A DNA stretch of 64,000 bases from a virus. Taxonomy: Duplodnaviria > Caudoviricetes. Position numbers and translations under genes: made by a program. The notes beneath the pieces were generated by a model, which ran no database searches, was not told the origin of the DNA, and saw only the letters and a list, made by a program, of their open reading frames with translations. The DNA lies in the IMG/VR virus record IMGVR_UViG_3300020419_001132; one strand, 5' to 3'. Shown one piece after another: positions 1,012 through 33,886 of this stretch (position 1 is the stretch's first letter; each line of letters begins with the position of its first letter).

Positions 1012-1347
1012 ATGGATACAAAGTTAAGCAAAGCATTGGATTTTTCCCAATATATGACTACACTAAACAATCAAAAAAGGTTGTTGTGGGAAAAATACCA
1101 AGAAAGTTTGTTATATTATTGTAATGGAGGAAAGTTTACTATAACTCCTGAACTAATAGCATATTGTAATGCCGCAGGTTATGATAATGTTGTGCTAATA
1201 GATGATAATCAATTACCCATAAAAGTTACACTGAAAGAATTTTTGTATGATATACGTGTACAATATGGAAAAGCATCTACAGAATATTATGAGCAGTACT
1301 CCAAGTTAAAAGTAAAAAGAAAAATAGAGGATTTAATTGAAGTATGA
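1012..1347 (+). CDS. Hypothetical protein
   Basis: 111-aa ORF with SD; stop overlaps the next start (ATGA). Confidence 0.75.
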   Translation: MDTKLSKALDFSQYMTTLNNQKRLLWEKYQESLLYYCNGGKFTITPELIAYCNAAGYDNVVLIDDNQLPIKVTLKEFLYDIRVQYGKASTEYYEQYSKLKVKRKIEDLIEV

Positions 1348-2159
1348 GTCAAGGAGTACTGTTATTTGCACACAACAGCCCTCAAATTGATTATGTAAAA
1401 CAGGCAGTATATTGTGCTAAGAAAATAAAAAAACATTTAAGTTTACAGGTAGCACTAGTAACCGATTCTAAAGCATATTTAGAACGAGCATTTCCTTATT
1501 ATTCTAATTATATTGACATTGTTGTAAGCAAACATCATAAAACAGAACAACATAGAAAGTTCTGGAATGGCACTATGTACAAAACATTGCCTTGGAATAA
1601 CTTTACAAGATGTCATAGTTACGATCTGTCGCCATTTGATAGAACACTAGTATTAGATACAGATTTTTTAGTAGGAAATAACTTGTTGCTAAAATGTTTC
1701 AGCAACAATAACTTTAAAATTAGTAGCAGTTTTATAGATTTAAATCCAAGTAGAAATGACATTACACTAAGCAGGGTAAGTGATACATCAATTAATATGT
1801 ATTGGGCAACTGTATTTTATTTTTGTAAAAATAAATTTAGCAAAACTTTTTTTAATTTAGTACAACACATACAAGATAATTGGAACTATTATAGGCTTTG
1901 TTATCAAATACAAGAAAATAACTTTAGGAATGATTTTGCATTTTCTATTGCATTGCACTTAATGGGTAATCCTCAAAAAGAATTACCTTGTAGTATATAC
2001 CTAACAACTGATAAAGACTTGCTTCTTAAAATACAAGATGATAGATATAAGATATTATTAGAGAATGAAACTTTATGTTCTGTAAACGAAACAAATATAC
2101 ATCTTATGAATAAGTTTACATTGAACGACAACATACATAAGGAGTTACAAAATGAGTAA
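1344..2159 (+). CDS. GT-A fold glycosyltransferase-like (nucleotide-diphospho-sugar transferase)
   Basis: DxD motif (VLDTDF), YDLSPFDRT, RNDFAFSIA; paralogue of the next ORF. Confidence 0.6.
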   Translation: MSQGVLLFAHNSPQIDYVKQAVYCAKKIKKHLSLQVALVTDSKAYLERAFPYYSNYIDIVVSKHHKTEQHRKFWNGTMYKTLPWNNFTRCHSYDLSPFDRTLVLDTDFLVGNNLLLKCFSNNNFKISSSFIDLNPSRNDITLSRVSDTSINMYWATVFYFCKNKFSKTFFNLVQHIQDNWNYYRLCYQIQENNFRNDFAFSIALHLMGNPQKELPCSIYLTTDKDLLLKIQDDRYKILLENETLCSVNETNIHLMNKFTLNDNIHKELQNE

Positions 2160-2973
2160 AGGATTTTGTTTTGTAGCCCAAAATAACGATACTACAGACT
2201 ACGTAAGGCAAGCATGTCTACTTGCAGTTAGTATACACAAGTTTAACAATAGTCAAAATATTTCCTTAATTACTAATGACCAAGTTCCAAAGAAGTATAG
2301 GGTATTATTTGATAAAATTATACCAATACAAAAAGATGATGCAGAAACTGCAACAAAAAAAATGCATAATCGTTGTAAGATGTATGAGCTATCACCTTAT
2401 ACACAAACTATTGGTATGGATGTAGACATGTTAGTTATGCGTGATATAACTAATTGGTGGTCATATTTAAAAAATTATGATTTATTTTTTGTAAGCAATG
2501 TGAAAACTTATAGAAACGAAACTGTTACGTCTACCTGGCATCGAAAAGTTTTTATTAATAATAATTTACCTAACTTATACAATGGAATATTTTATTTTAA
2601 AAAGTCAAAAACAGCAAAAAAATATTTTGATTTACTAAAAATTATTACACAGAATTGGGAAACATTTTATAAAGTTTACTCTCCTATCAAAATGCAAAAG
2701 TTTTATAGTGTAGATGTTAGTACAGCTATTGCCTGTAAAATTTTAGGAATAGACAAGCAAGTATGCGATCCTAATAGTTTTATTAGTTTTGTTCATATGA
2801 AACCAGCTTTACAAAACTGGAGAGAATCCTGTCTAAATTGGACAGATAAAGTGGATTGGTCTGTAAATAATAGCAAAGAACTTATGGTAGATAACTTTAT
2901 ACAAAACAATGTATTTCATTATGTAGAAGATAAGTTTTTAACAGACGAACTTATAAAGGAACTTGAAACATGA
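2152..2973 (+). CDS. GT-A fold glycosyltransferase-like, paralogue of 1344..2159
   Basis: DxD motif (MDVDML), YELSPYTQT, NGIFYFKK, HMKP (GT8-like). Confidence 0.6.
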   Translation: MSKGFCFVAQNNDTTDYVRQACLLAVSIHKFNNSQNISLITNDQVPKKYRVLFDKIIPIQKDDAETATKKMHNRCKMYELSPYTQTIGMDVDMLVMRDITNWWSYLKNYDLFFVSNVKTYRNETVTSTWHRKVFINNNLPNLYNGIFYFKKSKTAKKYFDLLKIITQNWETFYKVYSPIKMQKFYSVDVSTAIACKILGIDKQVCDPNSFISFVHMKPALQNWRESCLNWTDKVDWSVNNSKELMVDNFIQNNVFHYVEDKFLTDELIKELET

Positions 2974-3542
2974 GTTGTTTTGCATATTTTAATGAAGACA
3001 CGGGCGAAGTTACAGAAATAACTAGCGAAAAAGATAGCACACGTCTTTATATAGAAATAGATGATGCTCTTGCAACAAGTTTTTTAAATGCAACAGAAAG
3101 TATGTTGGATTGGATTGTAACAACTGACAGTGATAACAAGTATGTAATATCAAAAAAACAAAAAAATAAAAAAGAAGTAATAACAAACAATAGTATTTTT
3201 CCATTAAAAAGATTTAACAAAATACAAGAAACACAAGATGTATTTCAAGTTATACAAATAGGAACAAAATGGTTAGGTTATGCAAGTTTAACAAACGAGT
3301 GTAGAGATTTTTATAAACGTAGTAAAGATTATTTTGGACAATATAAGGTTTTGTATGTTACAGAAAAAGGCGATAAAAGAAAACTATTAGAAACTATTTC
3401 TGTTGACTTTGAAAATTTTTTTACTGATACTAAGTTTGAAATACAAGCAGAGACATTAAAAGATTGTGACCTGTATATTGCTTCAGGAAATGATAATTTT
3501 ATACATGTAAGGTGTGATAATGAGCATGAAATACTTTACTAG
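2970..3542 (+). CDS. Hypothetical protein
   Basis: 190-aa ORF translationally coupled to both neighbours. Confidence 0.7.
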   Translation: MSCFAYFNEDTGEVTEITSEKDSTRLYIEIDDALATSFLNATESMLDWIVTTDSDNKYVISKKQKNKKEVITNNSIFPLKRFNKIQETQDVFQVIQIGTKWLGYASLTNECRDFYKRSKDYFGQYKVLYVTEKGDKRKLLETISVDFENFFTDTKFEIQAETLKDCDLYIASGNDNFIHVRCDNEHEILY

Positions 3543-3891
3543 AAAGATGATAGCCCACAAAGACTTAAACAGTAATGGGACTCTTTTTGGCGGTCGTGTA
3601 CTTGACTGGATTGATGAGGAAGCATATATTTACTGTAGCTGTCAATTAGATAATGACAGAGTAGTAACAAGAAGTATGAGTAATATTGATTTTCTGCATA
3701 GTGCAGTAAGAGGAGATATTATTGAAATAGGCATGGAAACAGTGAAGCTAGGAATTACAAGTATTACAATTAAATGTAACGTAAGAAATAAACGTACAGA
3801 AAAAACAATTACCAGTGTTGATAAAATTGTATTTGTAAACTTAGGACCTGATGGTAAGCCTGCACCACACGGAGTAACAAATGAAAGTTAA
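3526..3891 (+). CDS. Acyl-CoA thioesterase (hotdog fold)
   Basis: DLNSNGTLFGGRVLDWIDEEA hotdog signature, IDFLHSAVRGD; likely start ATG 3526. Confidence 0.85.
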   Translation: MKYFTRKMIAHKDLNSNGTLFGGRVLDWIDEEAYIYCSCQLDNDRVVTRSMSNIDFLHSAVRGDIIEIGMETVKLGITSITIKCNVRNKRTEKTITSVDKIVFVNLGPDGKPAPHGVTNES

Positions 3892-5470
3892 CGTTCCAGA
3901 CTGTGATGTAGTTTATTTGTCATATGACGAACCTAATGCAGAAAAAAATTATGCAGATCTTCTAACAAAAGTTCCTTGGGCAAAACGTATACACGGAGTT
4001 GAAGGATCAGATGCGGCACACAAGGCATGTGCAGAAATATCAGAAACACAGCGTTTTATAACTATAGACGGTGATAATATGGTTAAGCCAGAATTTATAA
4101 ATCAAAGTGTAGAGTTTGTAGCAGGTTCAGATATTTCTAAAAATGTAATAAGTTGGACAGGATATAACAAGATTAACGGATTGATGTATGGCAACGGCGG
4201 AATAAAATGTTGGGATAGAGATACTGTGTTAAACATGAAAACACACGAAAATGCAGATCCTGATAACATACAAGCACAAGTTGATTTCTGTTGGGATTTA
4301 GAATACATTCAAATGGATGATTGTATGAGTATTGTTGAAAATAACTATAATTCCAAACAAGCATGGAGAGCTGGTTTTAGAGAAGGTGTAAAAATGTGTT
4401 TAATTGAAGGAGAAAAACCTTCCTTAGATGACCTTATAAATGTTCATTGGAAAAATATGCACAGACTATTTGTTTGGACAATGGTAGGGGCAGATGTTAA
4501 AAACGGGCAGTGGGCAATATACGGTGCTCGTGAAGGATTTTACAAAACGATGCTAACAGATTGGGATTATATAAATGTAAGAGATTTTGAATACCTTAAT
4601 GAATATTGGAAAAACAAAATAACTACTGAAGATACTGTATATGACAAGATAGAAGAATACGGAGAAGAACTTATTAACCAGATACAGGTACCTATAAGTC
4701 AATTACCACTGGACGAAGGTGGTAGCAAATTCTTCAAAACATTATATCAAAATCCTCCACGTATAACACATCATACTGTATTACCTAAAGATAGTGGACA
4801 GTATGATATTATAATGTTATCGTATGGAGAACAAAATTCTAATGAAAATTTTGCAAAACTTAAACAGCGTTTCCCTCAAGCAAAACGTATACATGGAGTA
4901 AAAGGTATTGCAAATGGACACATTGCTTGTGCAGAAATAGCAGATACAGATATGATGTGGATTGTAGACGGAGATGCAGAAGTTTTAGATAATTTTAATT
5001 TTAATTATGTAGTACCAGAGCATGAAAAAGATGCTGTCCATGTATGGAGAAGTGTAAATCCTGTCAACGACTTAGAATACGGATACGGTGGAGTAAAACT
5101 TTTACCGGTAGAGCTAACAAAAGAAGTGGACACAAGTAGTGTAGATGTAAACACCAGCATTAGTACAAAATTTAAAGTCATGAAAGAGGTAAGTTGTGTT
5201 ACTAAGTTTAATACAGGCCCGTACGAGGCCTGGAAAAGTGCATTTAGAGAATGTTCAAAATTAGCAAGTAAGGTAATAGATCGACAGAAAGAGGATGAAA
5301 CAAATGCCAGACTTAAAACTTGGACGACCGTGGGACACGATAGATTATATGGTGAATATGCTCTGGCAGGCGCTACCGCTGGTATGGAGTTTGGCCTTTC
5401 TGGGGGGTCTGATCTTCAGTTGATAAACGATTTTGATTGGTTAAAGGAAAGATTTGATGAACAATTCTGA
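3881..5470 (+). CDS. Tandem two-domain glycosyltransferase-like protein
   Basis: Two homologous halves (LSYDEPN..KRIHGVEG..AHKACAE..IDGDN and LSYGEQN..KRIHGVKG..GHIACAE..VDGDA), each with a DxD and an AW(R/K)xxFRE motif. Confidence 0.6.
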   Translation: MKVNVPDCDVVYLSYDEPNAEKNYADLLTKVPWAKRIHGVEGSDAAHKACAEISETQRFITIDGDNMVKPEFINQSVEFVAGSDISKNVISWTGYNKINGLMYGNGGIKCWDRDTVLNMKTHENADPDNIQAQVDFCWDLEYIQMDDCMSIVENNYNSKQAWRAGFREGVKMCLIEGEKPSLDDLINVHWKNMHRLFVWTMVGADVKNGQWAIYGAREGFYKTMLTDWDYINVRDFEYLNEYWKNKITTEDTVYDKIEEYGEELINQIQVPISQLPLDEGGSKFFKTLYQNPPRITHHTVLPKDSGQYDIIMLSYGEQNSNENFAKLKQRFPQAKRIHGVKGIANGHIACAEIADTDMMWIVDGDAEVLDNFNFNYVVPEHEKDAVHVWRSVNPVNDLEYGYGGVKLLPVELTKEVDTSSVDVNTSISTKFKVMKEVSCVTKFNTGPYEAWKSAFRECSKLASKVIDRQKEDETNARLKTWTTVGHDRLYGEYALAGATAGMEFGLSGGSDLQLINDFDWLKERFDEQF

Positions 5471-6293
5471 ATCGACATTACAATGGGTTAGAGGTTTGTC
5501 AGAATATCTTGACTTTGTAAAAGACGATAAATCTAAAATGTTTATTGATTTTTTAGAACAAAGTATGTATGCAGATAATCCAGTTATTGATAATACTAAT
5601 CAAAAAGGAATGATAGAATTTATAAGTATCCTTAGAAAATTTGCTCCTAATGAGATTTTTGATATATTCCATAAGTATTATAGATTAGGTTTTGATCCAA
5701 AAGCACTTCAAGATGCATTTAGTAGAGGACAAGTATTAAGTAAAATCTGGTTAGTAAATGAGCTTGTAAAAATACAAAAAAACTTTGATATGATTCATGT
5801 ACATGCAGGTTGGTTTGGGCAAATAAGATTGTACTTAGATCAGATGCAGATAAAGTATAATAAAATGCGTGTGTTTGATATAGATAAAACAGCAAATGAA
5901 GTAAGTGACAAAGTGTTTAATAATTTGTTGTTAGAAAATTATTATGTTAAAGCTTCTATTGCAGACGTAGATAATCTTGCAACACTTTATAGAACAGGAT
6001 TTGAATATCCAATTACTGAGGACAAAAATGAAAAAACAGAAGCAGACTTGATTATAAACACAAGTGCAGAACATTTTCAAGAAAATTGGTTTTTAAAATA
6101 TAGAAATAAACCACAGTCTACAGATCCTTTGTTTATTATTCAGACAAATAATTTGCATAGTCTACCCGAGCATGTAAATACTATACACAACGTAGAAGAA
6201 ATGATAAAAAAATATCCTATGTCTCGGGTAGAGTATAGTGGACAATTAGAATTACAAGGATATACTAGATATATGTTGATAGGAAGAATATAA
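5454..6293 (+). CDS. SAM-dependent methyltransferase-like protein
   Basis: HVHAGWFG motif I-like segment, FDIDK, ADLIINTSAEH. Confidence 0.55.
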   Translation: MMNNSESTLQWVRGLSEYLDFVKDDKSKMFIDFLEQSMYADNPVIDNTNQKGMIEFISILRKFAPNEIFDIFHKYYRLGFDPKALQDAFSRGQVLSKIWLVNELVKIQKNFDMIHVHAGWFGQIRLYLDQMQIKYNKMRVFDIDKTANEVSDKVFNNLLLENYYVKASIADVDNLATLYRTGFEYPITEDKNEKTEADLIINTSAEHFQENWFLKYRNKPQSTDPLFIIQTNNLHSLPEHVNTIHNVEEMIKKYPMSRVEYSGQLELQGYTRYMLIGRI

Positions 6294-6964
6294 TGTCAGT
6301 AAGAAAAATTGAAGCTGGTGAAGATTGGGCTCTATGGAGGTCAGACGTAGTAGAAAATAATATTGAACAAATGTCTGCAGAACTAGGCAGAGCATATAGG
6401 CTTTTTACAGAAACATTTACAGGTATGAATTCTTCGCTTACAAGTTTAGATCCTTTTAATAATACTTCGTTAAAAGATTTACCAAATATATTCCAAAATG
6501 TAAAACGAGAAGAACAGGAAGATAGAAATTTTTTAAACACTAATCAAGATGTATCAGGTTACAGATTTTACAATGTGTTTGCCTTAACTACACCGAGTCC
6601 TCTTTTTTGGGAACTATTTCAAGAAATAAAATATATTGTTGAACAACAGTTTGATTATCACGGACCAAAATGGATTCAGTGCTGGTTAAATTATCACAAG
6701 CAAGATGAAGTTTTAGATTGGCATAACCATGCTTTCCCTATGCACGGGTATGTGTCTATTCGCCCTCATTATACTACAACTACTTTTGGTGATTATGAAG
6801 TTAAAAATGAAATTGGAAATATATACATTGGTCCTGGCCATAGAGATCATAAAGTAATTGTAAACAAGGAATGGAAAGATGATATGCCTAGGTTAACACT
6901 AGGATATGATATAATTACAGATGTAAATATCCCAGACAATCAATTTTCCGCTATACCGTTATGA
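6293..6964 (+). CDS. Fe(II)/2OG-type oxygenase-like (DSBH) protein
   Basis: WLNYH..DWHNH..H(R)DHKV..RLTLGYD; HxH...H metal-binding pattern. Confidence 0.55.
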   Translation: MSVRKIEAGEDWALWRSDVVENNIEQMSAELGRAYRLFTETFTGMNSSLTSLDPFNNTSLKDLPNIFQNVKREEQEDRNFLNTNQDVSGYRFYNVFALTTPSPLFWELFQEIKYIVEQQFDYHGPKWIQCWLNYHKQDEVLDWHNHAFPMHGYVSIRPHYTTTTFGDYEVKNEIGNIYIGPGHRDHKVIVNKEWKDDMPRLTLGYDIITDVNIPDNQFSAIPL

Positions 6965-7188
6965 TTGAAAATTTAACTTTACGCAAATTACAGTTAGAAT
7001 GTGCTAGAGCTTTACAGACTATGCAAGCCACTAATAATAACATACATCAATTTAATAAAAAGGCCCACCATAATAGCCAAGACTGGTATAAGGCAGTAGT
7101 AGAATGGTATATTAATTCATATGGTGGATTACCGAGCAAGGTAGGTCCTGGCACAAAAGTAAAATTAATTATGGATAGTGAAGAATGA
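6961..7188 (+). CDS. Hypothetical protein
   Basis: 75-aa ORF with ATGA-type overlaps on both ends. Confidence 0.7.
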   Translation: MIENLTLRKLQLECARALQTMQATNNNIHQFNKKAHHNSQDWYKAVVEWYINSYGGLPSKVGPGTKVKLIMDSEE

Positions 7189-7733
7189 AAGATATCACAC
7201 CAAAACACAACCAACACAAACAAAACAAAAACAAAATTTTTGTTAAAAAAAATAAAGTTTATAAAACTTTACGAACCGGTAAAGTATATGGACCTGATTG
7301 GTTAAAAGCCTATCGTAAAATATATGAACGTAATAAAAATTTGGTTAAAGTTTATGATGTTTTAGAAGAAGGTACAATGATATTAATGGAGAGGCTAGAC
7401 ATAATATGTACTTTAGACCAACTTTTTAGTAAAGATTCTAAACATAAAAATTTAATAACAAAAGATTTAATATGTGAAATAATTAGTGTTATAAGTAGGT
7501 CTTGGGCAATAGATTTTGAATATTCTAAAACACTTACAGGCCATGAATATTTTATACACAATGACTTAAAATTATCTAATTTAGCTTTGACTAGCGACTA
7601 TCAGATTAAATTCATAGATCCTGACTCATACGGATTTACTTTTGAATTAGATGGTGGATACACGTTTATTCAAACACATATAGAACTAATGCATAGAATA
7701 CAAAGGTATTATAATAATATAAAAGATGTATAA
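7185..7733 (+). CDS. Protein-kinase-like fold enzyme
   Basis: HNDLKLSNL catalytic loop and FIDPDS (DFG-equivalent). Confidence 0.6.
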   Translation: MKDITPKHNQHKQNKNKIFVKKNKVYKTLRTGKVYGPDWLKAYRKIYERNKNLVKVYDVLEEGTMILMERLDIICTLDQLFSKDSKHKNLITKDLICEIISVISRSWAIDFEYSKTLTGHEYFIHNDLKLSNLALTSDYQIKFIDPDSYGFTFELDGGYTFIQTHIELMHRIQRYYNNIKDV

Positions 7734-8790: not shown

Positions 8791-8808
8791 GATAAGTACG
8801 TATATAAA

Positions 8809-12608: not shown

Positions 12609-12653
12609 GTGAAACCCTGTTTTTCAGCTTAAATAAATCCATACTAAGTTTAA

Positions 12654-12669
12654 TATAAATATATTTATG
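12654..12669. promoter_or_regulatory. Bidirectional T4-late-like promoter
   Basis: TATAAATA on + (12654-12661) and CATAAATA on - (12669-12662) form the palindrome ATAAATATATTTAT between divergent genes. Confidence 0.55.
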
Positions 12670-12691
12670 TTCATTAAAGTAGTAGTTAACT

Positions 12692-21202: not shown

Positions 21203-21218
21203 CAAGTTAAATATTAAT

Positions 21219-26607: not shown

Positions 26608-27149
26608 TTATATTTCCAGATAGGATTTTTATTCTTATTCCTAAGTGTGGCTGTAACAGTATTATGAGTATGTATGGTGTAAATCCTTGGGCAAAACATA
26701 GACAACATATTGAAAATAAAGAGGAAGCAGTTTTATATTTAAAAGGAGATTATCCCCATATGCCTGTTAGTCAGATTCCAGAAAGATTTTCTTATCTGCC
26801 TACAGAAGCGATAGTCAGAAACCCTTGGCATAGAACTGTAAGTAGATATTTTTATCTACAAAAAATGAACGACTTCGAAATGAGTTTTGAAGAATTTGTA
26901 AAAAGTAAGTATATACATCCTATGTACAAACAAGATCCTGATTATGCCAAATGGGGTAGTGTAAGTTGGACACAACAGATTGAATGGATTGACGATAATA
27001 CAAAGGTACATAAATTTGAAGAGTATGATTTTACGTTACATGAAAATAAATCACATAGTCGAGATTTTGAAAGTATGTATAATAACGAGTTATATAAAAT
27101 AGTAGGAGATTATTACATAAAAGATGTAGAAAGGTTTAATTATGTATAA
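26604..27149 (+). CDS. Sulfotransferase (Sulfotransfer_2-like)
   Basis: IPKCGCNS 5'-PSB-like motif; IVRNPWHRTVSRY 3'-PB motif. Confidence 0.7.
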   Translation: MIIFPDRIFILIPKCGCNSIMSMYGVNPWAKHRQHIENKEEAVLYLKGDYPHMPVSQIPERFSYLPTEAIVRNPWHRTVSRYFYLQKMNDFEMSFEEFVKSKYIHPMYKQDPDYAKWGSVSWTQQIEWIDDNTKVHKFEEYDFTLHENKSHSRDFESMYNNELYKIVGDYYIKDVERFNYV

Positions 27150-27729
27150 AAGTTGTTATGAAGTAGATGTTAAATTGCCAGATGATTATGTAGATAAGGC
27201 ATTAAAAGCATTTCACGAAAGATTGCCGGAGGCTTATACAGATAGAGCACCTGATGCCCATATAGATGAGTATCCCGAATTGTTTGAAATATTTGGAGAT
27301 ATGAAAGGTTGGTTTGCACCAAAGGTTAGATTGCTTAACCACACTCCTAACGAACTAGGGACAACGGCACCACACTTTGATGTCAATGAGCATTGGCAAT
27401 ATGAAGATATGGATAGATTTATTAAAATTGAAGCAAGTTTGAATGTTCCATTATTTGCCCCAGAAGGCGTTGTTACACGTTGGTATCAACAAAAGAATCC
27501 AGATGTTATACACCCATATGACTTTTGGGAAGGTAAAAAATATGAAATGCGAACAGTAGATGAATTTGAAATTACAAATAAGCCTGTATTGTTTAGAACA
27601 GGTATTTGGCATGCTGTAGAAAAATCAGACAGCAAACGCACTATGCTAAGTTTCAGTGCAAGATATGGTATCGATTGGGATACTTTTGTAAATTGTTGGA
27701 GAGACAGCGGATTACTTATTGAGCGTTAG
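27142..27729 (+). CDS. Fe(II)/2OG-type DSBH oxygenase
   Basis: APHFD...FRTGIWHAV...RTMLSF. Confidence 0.6.
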   Translation: MYKSCYEVDVKLPDDYVDKALKAFHERLPEAYTDRAPDAHIDEYPELFEIFGDMKGWFAPKVRLLNHTPNELGTTAPHFDVNEHWQYEDMDRFIKIEASLNVPLFAPEGVVTRWYQQKNPDVIHPYDFWEGKKYEMRTVDEFEITNKPVLFRTGIWHAVEKSDSKRTMLSFSARYGIDWDTFVNCWRDSGLLIER

Positions 27730-28276
27730 ACTCGCCCTTCCAGCGTAAAAATGGTTCTTCACTTGCAAAAGGCCAACCACTAATATTTAATCTATCACCA
27801 GTACAGTTATCTACTTCATGTAGTATGTCTACATGCATACATACAAGCCTATTTCGTTTAGGTAATATGCTTATACCATCGACACGTAAAGCACCATCAG
27901 TTTCGTCTGTCAGGTATAACATGTATGTCCAATCACCGTATATTTTATGATCCTCTATATGTGGAGCACAGAAACTTCTTTCTGGTTCAAACTTTTTTGC
28001 AAACAGTTGCAGGGGATTAAGTTTTTCTGTTGGAAGATCTAAACCTATTACATTGCCTATTTTTTTCAACAAAGGATAACGCAAGTCACTTCGCCTAAGT
28101 TCTGTGCGTAGCATATACCAATCATAGTCTGTTTTTTCTTCCATTACATGATTACAGTCTTCATTGTTTAATGAAATAGTTTCAGCTCCGGTAACTAACT
28201 TTGTAAGATCTGTAATTAATTCTTCTTCTAAAAAATTATCACAAATTATTAATGTATCAAACTCAGTTCTTAGCAT
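27716..28276 (-). CDS. 2OG-Fe(II) oxygenase (prolyl-4-hydroxylase-like)
   Basis: APHIED..YMLYL..LHEV..RLNISGW. Confidence 0.7.
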   Translation of the reverse strand: MLRTEFDTLIICDNFLEEELITDLTKLVTGAETISLNNEDCNHVMEEKTDYDWYMLRTELRRSDLRYPLLKKIGNVIGLDLPTEKLNPLQLFAKKFEPERSFCAPHIEDHKIYGDWTYMLYLTDETDGALRVDGISILPKRNRLVCMHVDILHEVDNCTGDRLNISGWPFASEEPFLRWKGESNAQ

Positions 28277-29336
28277 AATTTAATTCCTTTGTATTCCAAT
28301 TTTTTCCATATCCACTACTGTATTCAAATTTTTGCCCACATGTCCTTCCACATGTATATATTCTTTTATATTTGTCATCAGGATTATTCCAGGATCTTTC
28401 TAAATAAGTTTGGAAAAATTCGTTTTGTAAAACATTCCAACCATATTTTCTCATATCATTAAAATCTTCGCCATACAAGTCTAAAAAATATTTAAAACTT
28501 TCCCATTGTTTAGTATGCCTTTTGTCGGCAAAATATTTAGGACCACCAAACCAACAGCATGGCCATAGGCGCATATCCATATCAATAAATAATCTAAAAT
28601 CTTTTTTAAACTTACAAGTGATATCTGTATTTGCAACATAATCATCAAAGTTTTTGTATTGAGAAAGTACAGAAGAAAAGTCTTGTGTTACGTGACTGTC
28701 TTTATTTTTTACCGTATTGCCTTTTCTAGTTTTAACTTGCGTTTTTGTATCTTGAAATCTAGCAGTATATTTTACAGTAAAATTGGTAAATCCTAATTTA
28801 CTTGCTAATTTTTCTGCATCATCTATTTGATGATAATTATGTGCAAACTCTATAAATTGCCATTCTGCTTTCCCACCAGCTTTTATATAAGCAGTTGCAT
28901 TTTCAATAATTTTTTCGAAATTACTTCCTATTCTATACAAATGATTAGTATCTTTTAATCCGTCTATTGAAAATACTACAGATAGTTTTTCTTTGCCGTT
29001 ATTAGCTAAGTCAGTCCACCACTTAGGTTTCCTAGCACTACCATTTGTTTCTATTCTCATTGTTCTTGTAAAATCTAAACTGTATAAAAAAGTTTCTTCA
29101 AAGGTCGGACTTGCTATTATATCTCCAAAGTTTCCACAATGAATAATTTGGTCTAATTTATTATTTGTAAAAGGTTCTAATATAATTTTATAATCTTGTA
29201 AAGTTAAATCAGTGATTGGCATACCTGGATTTACTTTTTGATCTTTACTTACCCTGCCACATTGTGGACACATTAAATTACATCTGCTTGTATGATCAAG
29301 CATTAATTTTTTAATGTATGAAGTATTAGTAAACAT
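28263..29336 (-). CDS. Radical SAM protein, C-terminal twitch-like domain (group A)
   Basis: CNLMCPQC; CGNFGD; PCCW..CGRTC; likely start 29336 (TAATG overlap). Confidence 0.9.
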   Translation of the reverse strand: MFTNTSYIKKLMLDHTSRCNLMCPQCGRVSKDQKVNPGMPITDLTLQDYKIILEPFTNNKLDQIIHCGNFGDIIASPTFEETFLYSLDFTRTMRIETNGSARKPKWWTDLANNGKEKLSVVFSIDGLKDTNHLYRIGSNFEKIIENATAYIKAGGKAEWQFIEFAHNYHQIDDAEKLASKLGFTNFTVKYTARFQDTKTQVKTRKGNTVKNKDSHVTQDFSSVLSQYKNFDDYVANTDITCKFKKDFRLFIDMDMRLWPCCWFGGPKYFADKRHTKQWESFKYFLDLYGEDFNDMRKYGWNVLQNEFFQTYLERSWNNPDDKYKRIYTCGRTCGQKFEYSSGYGKNWNTKELNYAKN

Positions 29337-29983
29337 TATTTTATAAGTGCAAATTTCTTGCAGTCGTCCCAACTTTCAGTATCGTAAGGTATATGGGCAA
29401 CTACTCGCCAATGATCAGTAGGATTCACAACCTGATGAAACTGATGTCTATTAAAGATAGCAGGCTTTTCGTGTAAACAATATTCTACAGCAACTTCTTC
29501 GTCTGGTATTTCTGATAATTCTGGCCTGCCTTTAATATAATTATAGCTGTCTATATATCTATTATCTTCTGGATCGTGCCAATGTGCATACTTTGTTATG
29601 CTTTGTTCATCAGTGCCTATTAATGGTAACATTAAGGCACCTGCATGCCAATCAGGTGAAGGAGCAGGATGTCTGTGCGGGACAAATATAGGAGTTATTT
29701 CTGGACATGTAACAAAAAACATAACATCAGATACAAGATGAAACTTAGGTATTAATCTTTGCCATTCGTTGTATTCAGGTAAATGCATAATTTGTCCAAT
29801 ACGAACTTTTGTCCACATTCTGGCTCTATAAAATGCATCATTGCGTTCAAAATGTTTTTTAAAGTAATCGGTTCTTGGTTGGTTAGTGACTAAGCTAGGA
29901 CATATATTAAATATATCTCTACACATCCTTTGCATTAACGTATAATCTTCACTCCATTCAAGTTCTATTATAAAATCATCCAT
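29336..29983 (-). CDS. Fe(II)/2OG-type DSBH oxygenase-like protein
   Basis: PHRH...FNRHQFHQVVN...RVVAH. Confidence 0.5.
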   Translation of the reverse strand: MDDFIIELEWSEDYTLMQRMCRDIFNICPSLVTNQPRTDYFKKHFERNDAFYRARMWTKVRIGQIMHLPEYNEWQRLIPKFHLVSDVMFFVTCPEITPIFVPHRHPAPSPDWHAGALMLPLIGTDEQSITKYAHWHDPEDNRYIDSYNYIKGRPELSEIPDEEVAVEYCLHEKPAIFNRHQFHQVVNPTDHWRVVAHIPYDTESWDDCKKFALIK

Positions 29984-30609
29984 TTATATTCCCTTGCATT
30001 TTCTATTACTGACTCGTAATCTATGTAATCTCTCATTTTAGCATATTCAGTAGATAAATTCATTTCCTCATAGTTAAATGTTTTAAGTTTATTAAATTTT
30101 CTCAAATCTAAACTGTTATCACGGTTATTAATATCTAACCATAATTCTACGTCAGATTTATCAATTTGTATTTTTTGTTTTTTAATTTTGTTCATTTCAC
30201 TTACTTTAGGATTAGGATGCTCCCAACCTGTTTTTTGTTGATATGTATGACTTAAAAACTGCTCCCATTTGTTTTGTCTTTGTAAATAGTATACATTTTT
30301 ATCTTCGTAAAAACTATATAACCATTCTCTATGATCTTCCCAGTTATATATCTGACTTGGAAATAGTTTTATACAATAGTGCCTGTCTTTTTTTATTTCT
30401 GATTCAATAAACTTGGTTTTTGAAGCAAGATTGTCTTTATCTAACTGGTCAAACATTTCTAATAGATGTTTATGGTTTCTTCTTTTAATCCAATATAACC
30501 AATCTTTGTTAAAGTATTCTCCAATGTAATTACTAGGTTTATCCAAGTAGCTATCTATAAACCAAGTGCTTCCACTTCTTGGACTAGCTATTAGTAGTTT
30601 AGTATCCAT
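29968..30609 (-). CDS. Sulfotransferase (Stf0-like)
   Basis: ASPRSGSTWF 5'-PSB motif; YLQRQNKWEQFLS; likely start 30609. Confidence 0.7.
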   Translation of the reverse strand: MDTKLLIASPRSGSTWFIDSYLDKPSNYIGEYFNKDWLYWIKRRNHKHLLEMFDQLDKDNLASKTKFIESEIKKDRHYCIKLFPSQIYNWEDHREWLYSFYEDKNVYYLQRQNKWEQFLSHTYQQKTGWEHPNPKVSEMNKIKKQKIQIDKSDVELWLDINNRDNSLDLRKFNKLKTFNYEEMNLSTEYAKMRDYIDYESVIENAREYKWMIL

Positions 30610-31342
30610 TTTGTTTCTGCCAGTCACTCCAATCAAAACTTCCATCTTCTAGCCACTGATTATTATGAGTATCACCCTTGCTTTGCAGACCGTGAATACT
30701 ACCTACTAAGTGTAATCTTTTATAATCTGTATATGGAACTTGATGAGGGCGAACAGTATTAAGTAGGAATGCTTCTCCTGGATCACACATAATAGGCCCA
30801 GCATCAGTATCTATTGCACTTACTTTAGGATCATTTTCTAATACATGATGATATCTAAATCCAGTATCTCCATCTGTATGCCATTCAAAGATACATTCAT
30901 TTTCCATATAGCTATACCAATAATTACTTCGACCCATATTATTACAATATTCATTTAATGCCTGATAATGATGTTCGCCTAGTTTTTTCATATCATTATG
31001 TAAAAAACACCAAATATCTTTTTGTGTATAGTTTCCTAGTCTTGCATTTTCTTGGCGCATCATTATCTTATATAGTGTTCCTGTTTCAAGATGATGTTCT
31101 TCAGTGTAATCTTCCCAGTCTGGTTCATCTTCTATTACAAACCCACGTAAGCTATCAACAAAATCTTTTTTATGCATAAGTTTGTCACTACGTTTTAGAT
31201 ATACATTCATGTATGTTTGGTTGCCAAACTTAATATCATCAAAAAATTCTTCAGTCATCTCATAGAATAGATCTGTCATTTCTTTTGTATTACTGATAGG
31301 CGGAATCTTTTTCCAAGCGTCTGTCATATGTGGGTCAAACAT
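30599..31342 (-). CDS. AspH-like Fe(II)/2OG oxygenase
   Basis: EWHTD...FLLNTVRPHQV...RLHLV; likely start 31342. Confidence 0.6.
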   Translation of the reverse strand: MFDPHMTDAWKKIPPISNTKEMTDLFYEMTEEFFDDIKFGNQTYMNVYLKRSDKLMHKKDFVDSLRGFVIEDEPDWEDYTEEHHLETGTLYKIMMRQENARLGNYTQKDIWCFLHNDMKKLGEHHYQALNEYCNNMGRSNYWYSYMENECIFEWHTDGDTGFRYHHVLENDPKVSAIDTDAGPIMCDPGEAFLLNTVRPHQVPYTDYKRLHLVGSIHGLQSKGDTHNNQWLEDGSFDWSDWQKQNGY

Positions 31343-31782
31343 TCGTATACTTCCTCTATTGGTTCTGCAAAACAAATTTGAAAATTTGTCCGCACATGGT
31401 TATTATTATTTACAAAATGTTCCTTTTGTGTATTCATTAGCACAGGAGTTTCATGTGTAACAATAGGACCATCTACAAATTCACAGTTAGCGTAATCTTT
31501 GTGCCAATAAAGTGGAACAATCAATACTGTGTTTCTATCCCATTTGTCGTTGTCTATATGGGGAATAACTTTTGATCCAGGCGGCTGTTGAACAAACATA
31601 GTATAACTTTTTAACGGAAACCTATTATACTTTTCAATGTTGTTATCCCAACATAGGTTGCCGTCATATGCTCCACCTTTTGTTGGATATGATATAAAAT
31701 TACTCCAGTCTAGACTTAGTTCTAATTCTTTAACTTCGCCATCAGAGATAACATTAGGTATCGCTATCCAATAAGGTAGCAT
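31324..31782 (-). CDS. Fe(II)/2OG-type DSBH oxygenase
   Basis: PPGSKVIPHID...LMNTQKEHFV...RTNFQI. Confidence 0.65.
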   Translation of the reverse strand: MLPYWIAIPNVISDGEVKELELSLDWSNFISYPTKGGAYDGNLCWDNNIEKYNRFPLKSYTMFVQQPPGSKVIPHIDNDKWDRNTVLIVPLYWHKDYANCEFVDGPIVTHETPVLMNTQKEHFVNNNNHVRTNFQICFAEPIEEVYECLTHI

Positions 31783-32432
31783 TATGTATATACCGCAAAT
31801 TTTTGTGCTTGTACAGCTTCTTCACAAACTTTAACATTAAGTATTAGCCATAAGCTATCACTGTTTACACTATTATTAAATAGGCAATGCGGTTTATGTG
31901 TGTTCATAAAGTATGATGTACCTTGTTGCCAATAGATAGGTTGCATGGTTGCTCCACCACCAAACATAAAATGAAATGTTGGAGGGTTTACATTTTTAAT
32001 AGGAGTTATAATCCTAAATACTTCCGGATCGTTGATTCTGTCACCGTCACAATGTGTGGGAAAATAACCTCCTGGCGGCAGTTTAATAAAATGACTTCTT
32101 GCTATCCAATCCTTCCAAGGGTCAACTAATTTACGTACTTCCTCGCACTGGTGATAGACAGGTGTAAGTGTTGTATAACTTGCTTCGTAAAAAATTTCGC
32201 CTGTTCGTTCCATTACGTCTTTGAGGCTATCTAGGTCGTTACCATCAAAACCCCCATCAATACTAGTTACACTTAATCCGTCTCGTAGGATATGTGGTTT
32301 ACCAGGATTAAATTTTTTCCATTTATCTTTAAATGGCTCTAGTTCTTTTTGTAATTTACCTGTATTACATTTAAATTTTGTTGGTAGTAAATCACCATAG
32401 TTACACATTATATTGTAAAGATGCCAACTCAT
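31782..32432 (-). CDS. AspH-like Fe(II)/2OG oxygenase
   Basis: LPPGGYFPTHCD...FMNTHKPHCLFN. Confidence 0.7.
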   Translation of the reverse strand: MSWHLYNIMCNYGDLLPTKFKCNTGKLQKELEPFKDKWKKFNPGKPHILRDGLSVTSIDGGFDGNDLDSLKDVMERTGEIFYEASYTTLTPVYHQCEEVRKLVDPWKDWIARSHFIKLPPGGYFPTHCDGDRINDPEVFRIITPIKNVNPPTFHFMFGGGATMQPIYWQQGTSYFMNTHKPHCLFNNSVNSDSLWLILNVKVCEEAVQAQKFAVYT

Positions 32433-32880
32433 TTATAACCTCCTGTACTGCTTCTTCTAGTGTTGTTTTTGTTATTAGATTAGGATTATCTTTTGTAAGT
32501 TCATGATTTTTTAGAAATCCCCATGTAAGATACTTTTGATTAAGTGTAGTACTTATATTCCTTAATGCTAATTTATTCTGTTTCTTGATTTTATATTCTT
32601 CATCTATAACATTAGCTTCAGTAATATTACTGCCTATATTGATACAAGGAATCTTTTTTTTATTTGCTAGTACACTTATATTTACTTGTGCATTTCCAAC
32701 TTCTGCGTTGTTTACAATTACATCAAACTTTGTTTCAAAAATAGCATCAGCATTGAACAATAAATTATAACCATTTGTTCTACTAAATCCTACTACCTCG
32801 TATCCTCCTTGAATACATTTTTCTTTAATATGTTTGCCGAAGCCTTTCGTATGCCCGGTTATGCCAATCGTAATACCCAT
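32401..32880 (-). CDS. Short SDR / NAD(P)-binding Rossmann-fold protein
   Basis: ITGHTKGFG (TGxxxGxG), IVNNA, INIGS, YxxxK-like YKIKK. Confidence 0.6.
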   Translation of the reverse strand: MGITIGITGHTKGFGKHIKEKCIQGGYEVVGFSRTNGYNLLFNADAIFETKFDVIVNNAEVGNAQVNISVLANKKKIPCINIGSNITEANVIDEEYKIKKQNKLALRNISTTLNQKYLTWGFLKNHELTKDNPNLITKTTLEEAVQEVINELASLQYNV

Positions 32881-33314
32881 TGCAGGCCTCCTCGTGGTAT
32901 ATCTTCCTGTGTCAAATTCCAGTTATAAAAGTTATGTTTTTGAAACCATTCCAGTAATTTAGGATTTTCTTCTCTGCTTATCCAGATATCTTTATATCCT
33001 AATTCTAATGCATACTTTGTACTTTGTTCTAACGTTTCGTTTCCTCGTTGCAGATCATCGTTCATACTCCCCCAATCATAATCTCTATCTCTTGTATGTC
33101 TACTCATAATACGTATGCTACCATTATATTCAGGACGTTCTATGCCTGCACTATAATAAATTAGATGGGGATCGTATGCCATACGGGAAAATTTAGTATG
33201 TTCAAATAATGGCCATTGTACATAATTAGATTCATGTTTATGACCTTTTGTTTTTTTAAATAGTTCTTTTATATCATTTAAATGAGGATTAATATCTTCT
33301 AGTAACCATTTCAT
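32859..33314 (-). CDS. Hypothetical protein (possibly GNAT-like)
   Basis: 151-aa coupled ORF; only weak resemblance to GNAT (YALELGYKDIWIS). Confidence 0.4.
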   Translation of the reverse strand: MKWLLEDINPHLNDIKELFKKTKGHKHESNYVQWPLFEHTKFSRMAYDPHLIYYSAGIERPEYNGSIRIMSRHTRDRDYDWGSMNDDLQRGNETLEQSTKYALELGYKDIWISREENPKLLEWFQKHNFYNWNLTQEDIPRGGLQWVLRLA

Positions 33315-33886
33315 GGAATGCTTTCTTCGTGATGATCTTTATGGTTACCTTCAAAGGGTGCAATAACATTTACCCATAATCTGTTTGCAGGACCTTCTGC
33401 GTCGTGACCAAACAAGTTTAGCACACCAAAACCTAAGTATGCAAGAAGAAATATTATTGATAAAATTACTAGAGCATTTACACCGAAAAGTAAAAACCAT
33501 AAAATAGTGTTTGCAATATAGATTGTATATCTATGTTTATGGAAAAATACTACTCTTGGATTCTTTATCATGTCTTTTATATATTTCCTTGGTATTGATT
33601 CAATATGCCATAAACTAAAAAGTATATTATACCAGGGTTGGAACTTAGCACTATGGGGGTCTTTTTCAGTATCAGCAAATTCGTGGTGCATACGATGTAC
33701 GCCAACCCATCCTAAAGGACTTCTTAGCCCACATAGCAATCCGCAGTAAAGCATTACAATTTCTTGCCACTTATTTGCCTTAAAACTTTTATGTGAAAAA
33801 TACCTATGATAACCATAAGTAACACCTATTGTTACAACAACCATGTAACAAAAATAAGATAAGAGTATAAGATATAGTACTTCCAT
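33311..33886 (-). CDS. Membrane fatty-acid (delta-9 type) desaturase, short
   Basis: His boxes GYHRYFSH, HRMHH, NHKDHH; hydrophobic segments. Confidence 0.85.
   Translation of the reverse strand: MEVLYLILLSYFCYMVVVTIGVTYGYHRYFSHKSFKANKWQEIVMLYCGLLCGLRSPLGWVGVHRMHHEFADTEKDPHSAKFQPWYNILFSLWHIESIPRKYIKDMIKNPRVVFFHKHRYTIYIANTILWFLLFGVNALVILSIIFLLAYLGFGVLNLFGHDAEGPANRLWVNVIAPFEGNHKDHHEESIP

Follow-up and report, generated by a model that had tools for sequence, protein, structure and literature searches.

A radical SAM-rich, fibre-linked gene island of a marine jumbo phage as a putative glycan-building and -editing pathway

Introduction

Twelve iron-sulfur radical enzymes are a heavy cost for a virus in iron-poor, oxygenated surface water, and a phage that encodes them next to its tail-fibre genes raises the question of what they serve for. 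The locus in question is located within a stretch of 64,000 nucleotides (nt), denoted the window in the following, which corresponds to bases 10402-74401 of the linear 85.6-kb phage record IMGVR_UViG_3300020419_001132 of IMG/VR. At positions 1012-33886 the window contains an island of 39 listed open reading frames (ORFs; numbered o1 to o39), which overlap or lie a few bases apart and whose frames are all intact. A first-pass annotation, made from the letters and the ORF list, had described about 39 tightly coupled ORFs of mostly enzymatic character and had proposed that they modify the virion surface or make an unusual glycan or small molecule. The count was reproduced, a 40th ORF of 75 amino acids (s75, 6961-7188) having been overlooked.

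The interpretation favoured here, which we hold with about as much doubt as confidence, is that the island encodes a soluble, cytoplasmic pathway for building and editing a glycan that probably decorates fibre-associated proteins of the virion. Essentially all relatives of the phage share a fixed core consisting of o2, o3 and o6 (predicted glycosyltransferases), o7 (predicted methyltransferase), the small protein s75, and o10, o15 and o20, which belong to the radical S-adenosylmethionine (SAM) enzymes.

Origin and conservation of the island

The island is genuine phage DNA. Near-identical DNA is present in sequencing runs of 14 studies from 2014 to 2025, and contigs from independent studies cover window positions 1-20000, with one piece (1-4917) running across the junction between the fibre gene and o1. 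Contamination and mis-assembly, which the first-pass annotation had named as grounds for rejecting its reading, are excluded by such contigs spanning the left junction. The notion of an artefact, be it contaminating cellular DNA, a chimera of the assembly or non-functional DNA in decay, could invoke close homologues in metagenome-assembled genomes (MAGs) labelled as bacterial. However, independent assemblies from many studies share sequence and junction, synteny is kept in relatives, the tightly coupled frames are intact and the core is as conserved as the DNA polymerase, so that the probability of an artefact is negligible. Five of the MAG contigs (L107, L108, L109, L118 and L172; labels Flavobacteriaceae, Crocinitomicaceae, Neisseriaceae, Gammaproteobacteria and Chloroflexota) have an o15 of 53-86% identity that falls in or next to the phage clade, and three of them (L108, L109 and L118) carry s75; they are probably phage fragments mis-binned into bacterial MAGs.

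A scan of IMG/VR with o15 yielded 210 viral contigs, the best 80 of which were analysed as related loci. In these 80, o15, the most conserved gene of the island, shows 82-89% identity, and the DNA polymerase of the same contigs 78-88%. The corresponding values are 79-90% for o20 in phages and 62-77% for o10 in 76 related loci. By these identities, o15, o20 and o10 are about as conserved as the DNA polymerase, which speaks for strong constraint on the core. In a large protein database o15 has 4010 relatives, many of them on contigs of 150-350 kb.

Whether relatives link the island to structural genes had been set as a test beforehand, and all 12 testable relatives keep the island directly behind tail-fibre genes. 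A gene for a protein rich in Ser, Thr and Gly (S/T/G-rich; one or two copies) together with a tail-fibre gene directly precedes o1 in ten of the ten loci with enough upstream sequence, and likewise in two long relatives compared as a whole, G1 (256 kb) and G3 (182 kb). In G1 and G3 the island is situated between the same fibre block and the same gene for an Mtd_N-domain protein, followed by the replication module. Size and number of radical SAM genes differ among the three islands compared: 8 such genes in 28 kb, 12 in the 33 kb of this island and 17 in the 56 kb of G1, which has two more elsewhere. The relatives keep the order o1, o2, o3, o6, o7, (s75, o9), o10 ... o15 ... o20; number and kind of the radical SAM paralogues between these anchor genes vary, and the genes of the right half (o23-o38) are for the most part peculiar to this strain.

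The source record has a completeness of 24% according to CheckV. From relatives of 256 kb (rated 72% complete) and 236 kb (66%), the genome size of the lineage is put at about 350 kb, i.e. that of a jumbo phage. Its family-B DNA polymerase is nearest to those of Sinorhizobium phage Phosso, Agrobacterium phage Atu_ph07 and Rak2-like jumbo myoviruses (42-50% identity). A nucleotide search of GenBank phages with both window halves gave zero matches, i.e. no cultured phage with nucleotide similarity, and a protein search with o15 gave three weak matches only; thus there is no cultured relative to lean on. The GC content is uniform across the window (0.29-0.37). The lineage is one of ocean-wide, cosmopolitan and uncultured marine phages.

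Glycosyltransferases and methyltransferase

In the following, o1-o13, s75 and o15-o29 are located on the plus strand, o14 and o30-o39 on the minus strand. The genes o2 (1344-2159) and o3 (2152-2973) encode paralogues (E = 1.9e-11). As single sequences neither has a Pfam match; the profile of their family matches glycogenin-1 and -2 of glycosyltransferase (GT) family GT8 at positions 9-104 (E 7e-5 to 7e-4). This match runs up to a DxD motif in which D105 is near-invariant and D107 invariant. Both proteins are accordingly predicted to be active as GT8-like enzymes of the GT-A type. Their identity in relatives amounts to 35-45% only.

The third transferase of the core, o6 (3881-5470), contains an internal repeat with a DGD motif in each half (residues 63-65 and 363-365), both invariant, and is predicted to be a tandem double GT-A glycosyltransferase. 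Its AlphaFold2 (AF2) model (predicted local distance difference test, pLDDT, 81) was compared with known structures by Foldseek, which returned the two-domain GT-A enzymes Mimivirus R699, LH3, K4CP, heparosan synthase 2, LARGE1 and COLGALT1 with E-values of 3e-5 to 1e-3, probabilities of 0.9-1.0 and a low global TM score (~0.2); matches in the AlphaFold database are named glycosyltransferase 2. With PF00535, o6 reaches 18.9 bits only, an Atlas search returned unnamed viral clusters only, and profile searches of the PDB with o6 and with o7 gave no match. The identity of o6 is 52-67% in phages and 36-47% in loci of Bdellovibrionota.

The adjoining o7 (5454-6293) has the predicted fold of a class I SAM-dependent methyltransferase: its AF2 model (pLDDT 88) has at least 500 Foldseek matches with E <= 0.001, and the listed top 50 matches from the PDB are almost all methyltransferases. 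In many relatives o6 and o7 are fused into one protein of ~1000 residues (e.g. L013:4089-7469, L017:16-3285, L099:12681-15854(-) and L061:2047-4854), the connection being made by 5-10 copies of a 23-residue helical repeat with the rough consensus E-DLRKA-v-EKN-HSLFRL-G. The copy number differs among strains, and one might speculate that the repeat acts as a spacer or ruler.

The three GT-A-like genes of the first-pass annotation are hereby recovered, o2 and o3 by profile and o6 by repeat and fold. As for the two methyltransferases listed there, o7 is borne out by its fold, whereas o24 offers a weak, motif-only resemblance. The G1 island additionally holds an NAD-dependent sugar epimerase/dehydratase and a UDP-glucose/GDP-mannose dehydrogenase. 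None of the membrane proteins typical of O-antigen or capsule loci of the Wzx/Wzy or ABC type has a Pfam match in the island, be it the phosphoglycosyl transferase of the initiation step, the flippase, the ABC exporter, the polymerase or the ligase. Among the three islands compared, the sole transport-type genes are found in G1, where a subunit of a TctA-family transporter (L093:7613-8899) is adjoined by an ORF with an apparent signal peptide (G001 188911-189678).

Radical SAM enzymes

The twelve radical SAM genes announced by the first-pass annotation all carry the CxxxCxxC motif, and ten of them match PF04055 above or near its threshold (30.6-57.1 bits; cut-off 29.5 bits). The two others, o10 and o31, fall under the cut-off with 24 and 26.3 bits and are clear paralogues of o11 and o13 (BLAST 1e-36 to 1e-51). 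According to paralogy and NCBIfam matches the enzymes form four groups: family A (o10, o11, o13 and o31), family B (o12, o15, o16, o17 and o19), family C (o18 and o20) and o22 alone.

Family A comprises, besides o31, the core enzyme o10 (7726-8790; CxxxCxxC at residues 18-25), o11 (8809-9864; 30.6 bits with PF04055) and o13 (11022-11969; 36.8 bits). The motif begins at about residue 18, and the auxiliary cysteine domain is C-terminal, in o13 as a SPASM-type domain (PF13186, residues 214-298).

In family B the arrangement is the reverse one, with a twitch-type cysteine domain ahead of the core. This is the layout of NF033640 (N_Twi_rSAM), a family with an N-terminal twitch domain and without assigned function (NCBIfam), whose curated cut-off is a whole-protein score of 170 bits. 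It is exceeded by o12 (9845-11041; 202.6 bits), the core enzyme o15 (12692-14098; 422.6 bits), o16 (14088-15326; 220.4 bits) and o17 (15307-17838; 203.6 bits). The latter has 843 residues, of which ~400 extra C-terminal ones are without family match. In o12 a SPASM-type match covers residues 6-81, before the core. From BLAST paralogy to o12, o15 and o16 and from its N-terminal SPASM-type match (PF13186 at residues 7-69, before PF04055 at 110-259), o19 (18996-20087) is probably a fifth member of the NF033640 type. In the alignment of family B, C11 is near-invariant, a CC pair at ~33-34 is mostly conserved and C92 and C95 are invariant, all of them preceding C148, C152 and C155.

Family C consists of o18 (17696-19003; 46.2 bits with PF04055; 31-73% identity in relatives) and its paralogue o20 (6e-14). 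The GTG start listed for o18 overlaps o17 by 143 nt, and the true start is probably further downstream. The core enzyme o20 (20090-21202; 57 bits) has a C-terminal cysteine cluster with C309, C331, C352 and C357 invariant, and its profile matches anSME and viperin of the PDB weakly. The PDB profile matches of family B are TvgB (8VPO, 3.5e-13), SkfB, BlsE and CteB-like enzymes. These span the generic radical SAM core only, as is the case for all PDB matches of o20 and family B; in family B the twitch region resembles the domain of BtrN that holds the auxiliary cluster (E 0.005).

The fourth group, o22 (21956-23476; PF04055 41.9 bits, weak PF02310), is a B12-binding class B radical SAM enzyme, in agreement with the first-pass assignment. 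It scores 155 bits with NF033712 (KedN5 family), under the cut-off of 700, is 93-94% identical in L011 and L035 and is, on sequence grounds, probably a C-methyltransferase. Judged from domain layout, and without a model specific for such elements, none of the radical SAM enzymes has an N-terminal extension of the type of the peptide-recognition element (RRE) found in systems for peptides made ribosomally and modified after translation (RiPPs), the N-terminus of family B being taken up by the twitch domain.

Cellular counterparts

The alignment of family B was scanned against one genome per prokaryotic species and returned mostly Bdellovibrionota. Five Bdellovibrionota genomes (G006-G010) hold 15-27 NF033640 matches each, most above the cut-off; in fourteen well-known control genomes no NF033640 match lies above it. 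The genes often form tandem arrays, for instance one of eight consecutive radical SAM genes on a Bdellovibrionales chromosome of 1.89 Mb. One Bdellovibrionota array is flanked by insertion sequence elements.

The core itself has bacterial counterparts as well. In about a dozen contigs, mostly from MAGs labelled as Bdellovibrionota (Bdellovibrionota loci L110-L117, L121, L136 and L176), orthologues of o10, o15 and o20 stand side by side, usually together with o6 and o7, at 36-66% identity. The individual values are 41-46% for o10, 56-62% for o15 and, including a few other bacterial MAG loci, 57-66% for o20. One such cluster is situated on a 349-kb contig together with rpoB, and the phage polymerase is absent from these Bdellovibrionota-type genomes. 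In a maximum-likelihood tree of o15 the phage clade is nested in a grade of Bdellovibrionota orthologues, with fork supports of 95/90 and 100/99; the tree is midpoint-rooted, the root falls among added paralogues and the rooting is not secure. This topology suggests a transfer from Bdellovibrionota-like bacteria to the phage lineage.

The neighbours of NF033640 genes in cellular genomes are mostly nucleotide-sugar, glycosyltransferase or polysaccharide genes. In Poseidonocella they are two B12 radical SAM enzymes, FdtA, an NDP-hexose 2,3-dehydratase, a GT28/EryCIII-type transferase and a polyketide synthase (PKS), in Halobacteriovorax two DegT-type sugar aminotransferases, a GT2 and GDSL proteins, and in Paenibacillus an acyl carrier protein, ketosynthases and a GT2. 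The eight-gene Bdellovibrionales array of N-terminal twitch enzymes adjoins AsnB, a GT2, a UDP-glucose dehydrogenase and PMT_2, and another Bdellovibrionales array a phosphoglucomutase/phosphomannomutase. The common denominator of these gene contexts is the chemistry of sugars and sugar nucleotides, sometimes on a lipid or polyketide scaffold. A literature search on N-terminal twitch radical SAM enzymes, radical SAM paralogues of Bdellovibrio and jumbo phages with radical SAM enzymes found nothing relevant.

Accessory enzymes and small proteins

The first gene of the island, o1 (1012-1347), encodes a conserved protein of 111 residues without a match to a hidden Markov model (HMM). It has 34-50% identity in 17 related loci and always occupies the first position. 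Two genes were not found in the 80 related loci, o4 (2970-3542; no family given) and o5 (3514-3891), which is a thioesterase of the 4HBT fold (PF03061, 54 bits). Downstream of o7 follows o8 (6293-6964), a phrog_2696 protein (8e-43) that is possibly a 2-oxoglutarate (2OG)/Fe(II) oxygenase (weak match to phrog_81, 5.7e-4).

The conserved 75-residue protein s75 fills the sole sizeable gap in the listed ORFs, and the island has no room for other small ORFs. It has 66 matches in the 80 related loci, with conservation along the full length and 68-70% identity for the copies of G1 and G3, and always lies just upstream of o10, with or without o9 in between. It belongs to no family and is absent from the Bdellovibrionota loci. 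A predicted complex of s75 with o10 scored 0.00, which gives no verdict either way. The small protein o9 (7185-7733), found in some relatives only, is weakly kinase-like (Pkinase E 0.0017, under the cut-off; catalytic-loop motif HNDLKxSN). At an A-rich stretch at ~7200-7260, around the start of o9, the contig depth rises to several hundred in four runs, probably by low-complexity cross-mapping.

For o14 (11964-12608), no match was found in Pfam, PHROGs or NCBIfam, and homologues with 24-41% identity recur in related islands. Likewise, o21 (21219-21977) has no HMM match and occurs with 61-75% identity in few relatives, adjoining o22. These two genes had been taken for a nitroreductase (o14) and a pyridoxal phosphate enzyme (o21), and neither assignment has HMM support.

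To the right of o22 the island is composed of two blocks. The variable block o23-o29 (23473-27729) is mostly absent from relatives and holds o23 and o24 (no family), the paralogues o25, o26 and o29, the AspH-type hydroxylase o27 and the sulfotransferase o28. The convergent variable block o30-o39 (27716-33886) contains o30 (2OG-FeII_Oxy_3), the radical SAM enzyme o31 of family A, o32, o34, o35 and o38 (no family), o33 with a sulfotransferase-like P-loop, the o27 paralogue o36, the o37 protein resembling short-chain dehydrogenases/reductases (SDRs) and the fatty-acid desaturase o39.

The figure of about 11 Fe/2OG oxygenases given by the first-pass annotation was not confirmed. HMM thresholds are exceeded by o27 (PF05118, 25.9 bits), its AspH-type assignment being thereby confirmed, and by o30 (PF13640, 31.6 bits), with ~5 more weakly supported. 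Among the latter, o36 is related to o27 (1.4e-6), and o29 lies near AspH and 2OG clusters in the language-model space of the Atlas (0.90-0.92), a lead only; the paralogue family of o25, o26 and o29 possibly represents cupin-type oxygenases. HxD motifs were found in o23, o32, o34 and o35, none of which is backed by HMM, hhalign or library matches. Comparing the putative oxygenases with one another by single-sequence hhalign gave the same paralogue pairs as BLAST and none further, and scans of the unannotated right-half ORFs with PHROGs and NCBIfam gave almost no matches. Thioesterase o5 and desaturase o39 (PF00487, 42.8 bits) were corroborated by HMMs. So was one of two proposed sulfotransferases, o28 (Sulfotransferase_2, PF03567, 22.7 bits at a cut-off of 22), while the resemblance of o33 is weak and confined to a motif; the kinase-like o9 and the SDR o37 retain weak matches. 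As previously noted, nonribosomal peptide synthetase (NRPS), PKS and transporter genes were not found in the island, o39 being its only protein with membrane segments.

Promoter-like elements

A sigma-70-like promoter (TTGACA-17-TATACT) is located before o1 at 963-991 on the plus strand, as judged only from its agreement with the consensus (11 of 12 positions). At 12654-12661 (plus strand), 37 nt upstream of o15, lies TATAAATA, a box resembling late promoters of the T4 type. It is strongly depleted in the 64 kb, with 2 copies compared to 12.8 expected from shuffles, and the other copy (35243-35250) is found upstream of the Mtd_N gene. As a conserved element before o15 the exact TATAAATA was rejected, as it occurs in 3 of 80 relatives and at another distance.

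The looser box ATAA[AG]TA precedes 41 of the 80 o15 orthologues. In this phage and two relatives it is 10-16 times enriched within the 60 nt upstream of gene starts; in this phage it precedes two tail-fibre-like genes, the S/T/G-rich gene, the Mtd_N gene, o11, o15 and o39 (as ATAAGTA 17 nt upstream of o11 and 12 nt upstream of o39). It is likely a lineage-specific promoter element which resembles the late promoters of T4 and cyanophages. Contigs from oligo-dT RNA libraries (X19 and X20) align to several island genes with few mismatches; they are short, have a depth of 2-4 and may stem from DNA carry-over, and were not counted as transcription.

Flanking genes and sugar supply

Both borders of the island are as described by the first-pass annotation. 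Upstream, a giant virion protein and four tail-fibre-like genes are followed by the S/T/G-rich, fibre-like structural protein (1-950, plus strand; start 12 bases before the window), which closes the tail-fibre block. With 29% Ser+Thr and 11% Gly it is a candidate acceptor of the glycan. Collagen-like G-X-Y repeats, sought as substrates of LH3-like hydroxylases/transferases, were not found in the flanking fibre proteins. The right border is formed by the fibre-like Mtd_N protein (33929-35212, minus strand; PF18454, 42 bits), homologues of which border the island in G1 and G3.

Beyond the Mtd_N gene the replication and nucleotide module encodes an HNH endonuclease, an ATPase, an exonuclease, a QueE-like radical SAM enzyme (43368-44297), GTP cyclohydrolase I (44509-45204), a further 2OG-FeII_Oxy_3 protein (46779-47339; all three on the minus strand) and the DNA polymerase. 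The genes at 43368-47339 are consistent with a 7-deazaguanine DNA modification pathway. Adjoining the DNA polymerase gene, and likewise on the minus strand, a protein of the UDP-glucose/GDP-mannose dehydrogenase family (53204-53989; PF00984, 89 bits) and a phosphomannomutase (54554-55279; PF03332, 89.6 bits) are encoded, which are possible suppliers of activated sugars. The dehydrogenase has only 261 residues and may be truncated or split.

Proposed function and alternatives

Gene content, conservation, synteny and the sugar context of the families are results of the analysis. As to the substrate, the chemistry of each radical SAM enzyme and the acceptor, we infer the following. The transferases would lay down a glycan from activated sugars, which are supplied in part by the phage. 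By abstraction of hydrogen from C-H bonds, the radical SAM enzymes of the core would edit sugars through epimerization, deoxygenation, oxidation or the formation of C-C bonds or C-methyl groups. The variable shell of radical SAM paralogues, B12 methylase, oxygenases, sulfotransferases, thioesterase and desaturase is swapped among strains and would diversify the product. The acceptor would be a fibre-associated virion protein, e.g. the adjoining S/T/G-rich protein, with the glycan coating the particle. A virion protein is suggested as acceptor by the fixed position behind the fibres, the lack of machinery for lipid carriers or export and the promoter-like box common with the fibre genes. Of the broader proposal made at first, the glycan part is supported by the core with its GT8-like and double GT-A transferases and its methyltransferase, by the nucleotide-sugar enzymes of sister islands and of this window and by the sugar contexts of NF033640 in several bacteria. 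The chain proposed for virion proteins, residue hydroxylation followed by glycosylation and sulfation, is not borne out: the oxygenase count was not confirmed, bacterial AspH-family enzymes hydroxylate lipids as well, and the twitch/SPASM enzymes lack an N-terminal peptide-recognition extension.

Several observations weigh against a glycan on the virion. The fold matches of o6 span both collagen glycosyltransferases and glycosaminoglycan polymerases, so that sequence and fold cannot separate protein glycosylation from polysaccharide synthesis, and most right-half ORFs have no detectable family in Pfam, PHROGs or NCBIfam. Some genes of the replication region have the ATAA[AG]TA box before them as well, so that it is not proven as a late signal, and the sigma-70-like promoter heads the first operon (o1-o13), which would fit early expression and a host target. 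The rpoB-linked bacterial cluster joins its radical SAM genes, one of the B12 type among them, with an AspH-type gene, a desaturase and TauD, and polyketide or fatty-acid genes occur in the Poseidonocella and Paenibacillus contexts; therefore, a glycolipid or lipid target is possible. One alternative is that the island makes or edits the O-chain, capsule, lipid A or membrane lipids of the host and thereby blocks superinfection or prevents progeny phages from adhering to debris, as has been proposed for the host recognition clusters of pelagimyophages. It can draw on the sigma-70-like promoter and the bacterial cluster with AspH, desaturase and TauD, on the desaturase and thioesterase of the island, on the polysaccharide genes adjoining the Bdellovibrionales arrays and on the AspH family, whose bacterial members include lipid hydroxylases (LpxO). 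Moreover, GT8 is mainly a family of lipopolysaccharide (LPS) synthesis, and the interpretation preferred in the publication on comparable pelagimyophage islands is that they modify the O-chain of the host (PMC7029224). However, without initiating transferase, flippase, polymerase, ligase or ABC exporter and with a single membrane protein such a pathway would need the export machinery of the host wholly, and neither the strictly conserved place directly behind the fibre genes nor the box common with them is accounted for. Remodelling of the host surface is therefore regarded as rather unlikely.

Distinctly unlikely is a direct protein or peptide chemistry, in which SPASM/twitch radical SAM enzymes and hydroxylases of the AspH type would cross-link, epimerize, methylate or hydroxylate residues in virion proteins or in a small precursor, sugars being secondary. 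The similarity of family B to the RiPP maturases TvgB, SkfB and CteB-like enzymes would fit, as would the adjacent fibre genes and the small s75 that always adjoins o10. The similarity is, however, one of the generic core, and the twitch region resembles BtrN, a sugar-type enzyme. An RRE-type N-terminal domain is missing from the domain layouts, and most of the cellular contexts examined are sugar loci. Besides, s75 looks folded and is conserved in full length, unlike a leader-plus-core peptide, and the bacterial clusters with o10, o15 and o20 lack it; space for another small ORF is lacking. Quite improbable in our view is a biosynthetic gene cluster for a free small molecule or glycolipid, i.e. 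a diffusible or membrane-bound metabolite such as a signal, a toxin or a siderophore-like compound. The mixture of enzymes, including thioesterase, SDR-like protein and desaturase, does resemble natural-product tailoring, NF033640 occurs in a PKS-plus-deoxysugar cluster (Poseidonocella) and a fatty-acid-plus-GT2 cluster (Paenibacillus), and the G1 island has its TctA-type transporter. Against this, neither this island nor the conserved core encodes a PKS, NRPS, terpene synthase or ketosynthase, the linkage to fibre genes is conserved, and the turnover of the shell from strain to strain would rather be expected of a surface antigen than of a metabolite whose target is fixed. Hypermodification of the phage DNA by sugars and radical SAM enzymes, e.g. 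to a glycosylated or elaborated 7-deazaguanine, is very improbable, even though QueE-like protein and GTP cyclohydrolase I are encoded in the window and PP-loop, QueC-like genes (SGGxDS motif) stand between radical SAM genes in some sister islands. The deazaguanine genes lie 10-18 kb off in the replication module beyond the fibre-like gene, it is to fibre genes and not to nucleotide metabolism that the island is linked, and a hypervariable shell of at least 20 enzymes is ill-suited to a base modification which the polymerase and packaging of the phage itself must tolerate.

Within the preferred reading of a glycan pathway, a more far-reaching proposal can be made. The NF033640 arrays may constitute a combinatorial sugar-editing toolkit, with a different radical modification of a glycan for every paralogue, common to the predatory Bdellovibrionota and to a phage lineage which took over the core (o6, o7, o10, o15 and o20) from them and possibly infects them, both coating their attack fibres with hypervariable sugars of unprecedented chemistry. 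As it stands we consider this proposal unlikely.

Comparison with known systems

The closest known counterparts are the host recognition clusters (HRCs) of pelagimyophages and cyanomyophages, which are hypervariable and linked to fibre genes and in pelagimyophages have a mean size of 44.6 kb (Zaragoza-Solas et al. 2020, PMC7029224). They hold GT8 glycosyltransferases, UDP-glucose dehydrogenase, other LPS-type genes and cassettes of radical SAM genes, which vary among closely related strains (PMC7029224). Genes of the AspH type are common in HRC phages, and the HRC islands are known from sequence alone. In addition, the marine T4-like genome TARA_ERS488813_N000010 carries 12 radical SAM genes (Nishimura et al. 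2017, PMC5332604). In neither study were the enzymes of the radical SAM islands analysed. The first-pass statement that no characterised phage cluster of this scale is known thus holds as far as characterization is concerned, whereas islands of the kind had been described (PMC7029224, PMC5332604). The present island shares with the HRCs the hypervariability at a fixed, fibre-adjacent place, the large size and the presence of GT8 enzymes, sugar genes and radical SAM genes, in line with the definition of HRCs as hypervariable, non-syntenic islands of the structural region that hold tail fibres and glycosyltransferases (PMC7029224). It differs in lineage (T4-like pelagi- and cyanomyophages versus a ~350-kb jumbo phage with an Atu_ph07/Phosso/Rak2-like polymerase), and its borders are the fibre block and the replication module, the HRC being defined by a place between VrlC and the neck gene gp14. 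Unlike in HRCs, radical SAM enzymes dominate here, with a fixed core of three whose conservation equals that of the DNA polymerase. A link to NF033640 and to Bdellovibrionota does not appear in the parts of PMC7029224 and PMC5332604 considered here.

The Bdellovibrionota arrays correspond to the island in having the same family above cut-off, the tandem habit, the core o6/o7/o10/o15/o20 at 36-66% identity and AspH, desaturase and B12 radical SAM genes alongside. They differ in being cellular loci, in which no adjoining fibre genes were seen and no homologues of s75 or o2/o3 were detected, and are a relative, not an explanation, of the phage island. Among the twitch/SPASM radical SAM enzymes of known function, BtrN, anSME, SkfB, TvgB and BlsE likewise combine the core with an auxiliary Fe-S cysteine cluster. 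In these the auxiliary domain follows the core, whereas in family B it precedes it, and at the low identity no substrate-defining residues are transferable.

Decoration of the own particle in the host cytoplasm by virus-encoded soluble glycosyltransferases and sugar-nucleotide enzymes is found in the fibril glycosylation clusters of Mimivirus and for the capsid glycans of chlorovirus PBCV-1. These giant viruses have eukaryotic hosts, and we know of no radical SAM arrays in their glycan systems; the best PDB match of o6, Mimivirus R699, is a match at fold level only (TM score by query ~0.2 owing to the domain arrangement; 10% identity). In mycobacteriophages, glycosyltransferase genes beside structural genes reportedly glycosylate capsid and tail-tube proteins. 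Those cassettes comprise one to few genes without a shell of radical SAM enzymes, oxygenases and sulfotransferases and belong to unrelated phage and host groups. A further analogy concerns the synthesis of O-polysaccharides by WbdA and WbdD, in which a multi-domain GT polymerase acts with a kinase-methyltransferase terminator that has a coiled-coil ruler. Here, a multi-domain GT-A enzyme, a methyltransferase and a kinase-like protein occur together, with a helical repeat linker in relatives; this is an analogy only, without a shown sequence relationship, and unlike systems of the WbdA/WbdD type the island has no ABC transporter or lipid-carrier enzymes.

Conclusions

As far as found, the three-radical-SAM core, the architecture of double GT-A, repeat and methyltransferase, s75, the size of the lineage and the tie to the NF033640 arrays of Bdellovibrionota are new. 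Three radical SAM enzymes as conserved as the DNA polymerase, together with ~4000 relatives of o15, argue for an essential role in an abundant lineage. The genes o6, o7, s75, o10, o15 and o20 represent a conserved, compact and expressible set for finding the substrate and reaction of NF033640, and the link to Bdellovibrionota hints at a trait of bacterial predators that awaits study and may be a clue to the host. Should the virion be coated by the product, marine jumbo phages would join giant eukaryotic viruses and mycobacteriophages as bearers of virus-made glycans, with radical chemistry as an addition. This would have a bearing on host recognition, on the resistance of the particle to grazing or enzymes and on the question why fibre-adjacent islands vary more than any other part of marine myovirus genomes. 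If the toolkit shared with Bdellovibrionota were real, carbohydrate chemistry by radical SAM enzymes would gain a new class and phage-host recognition an additional layer.

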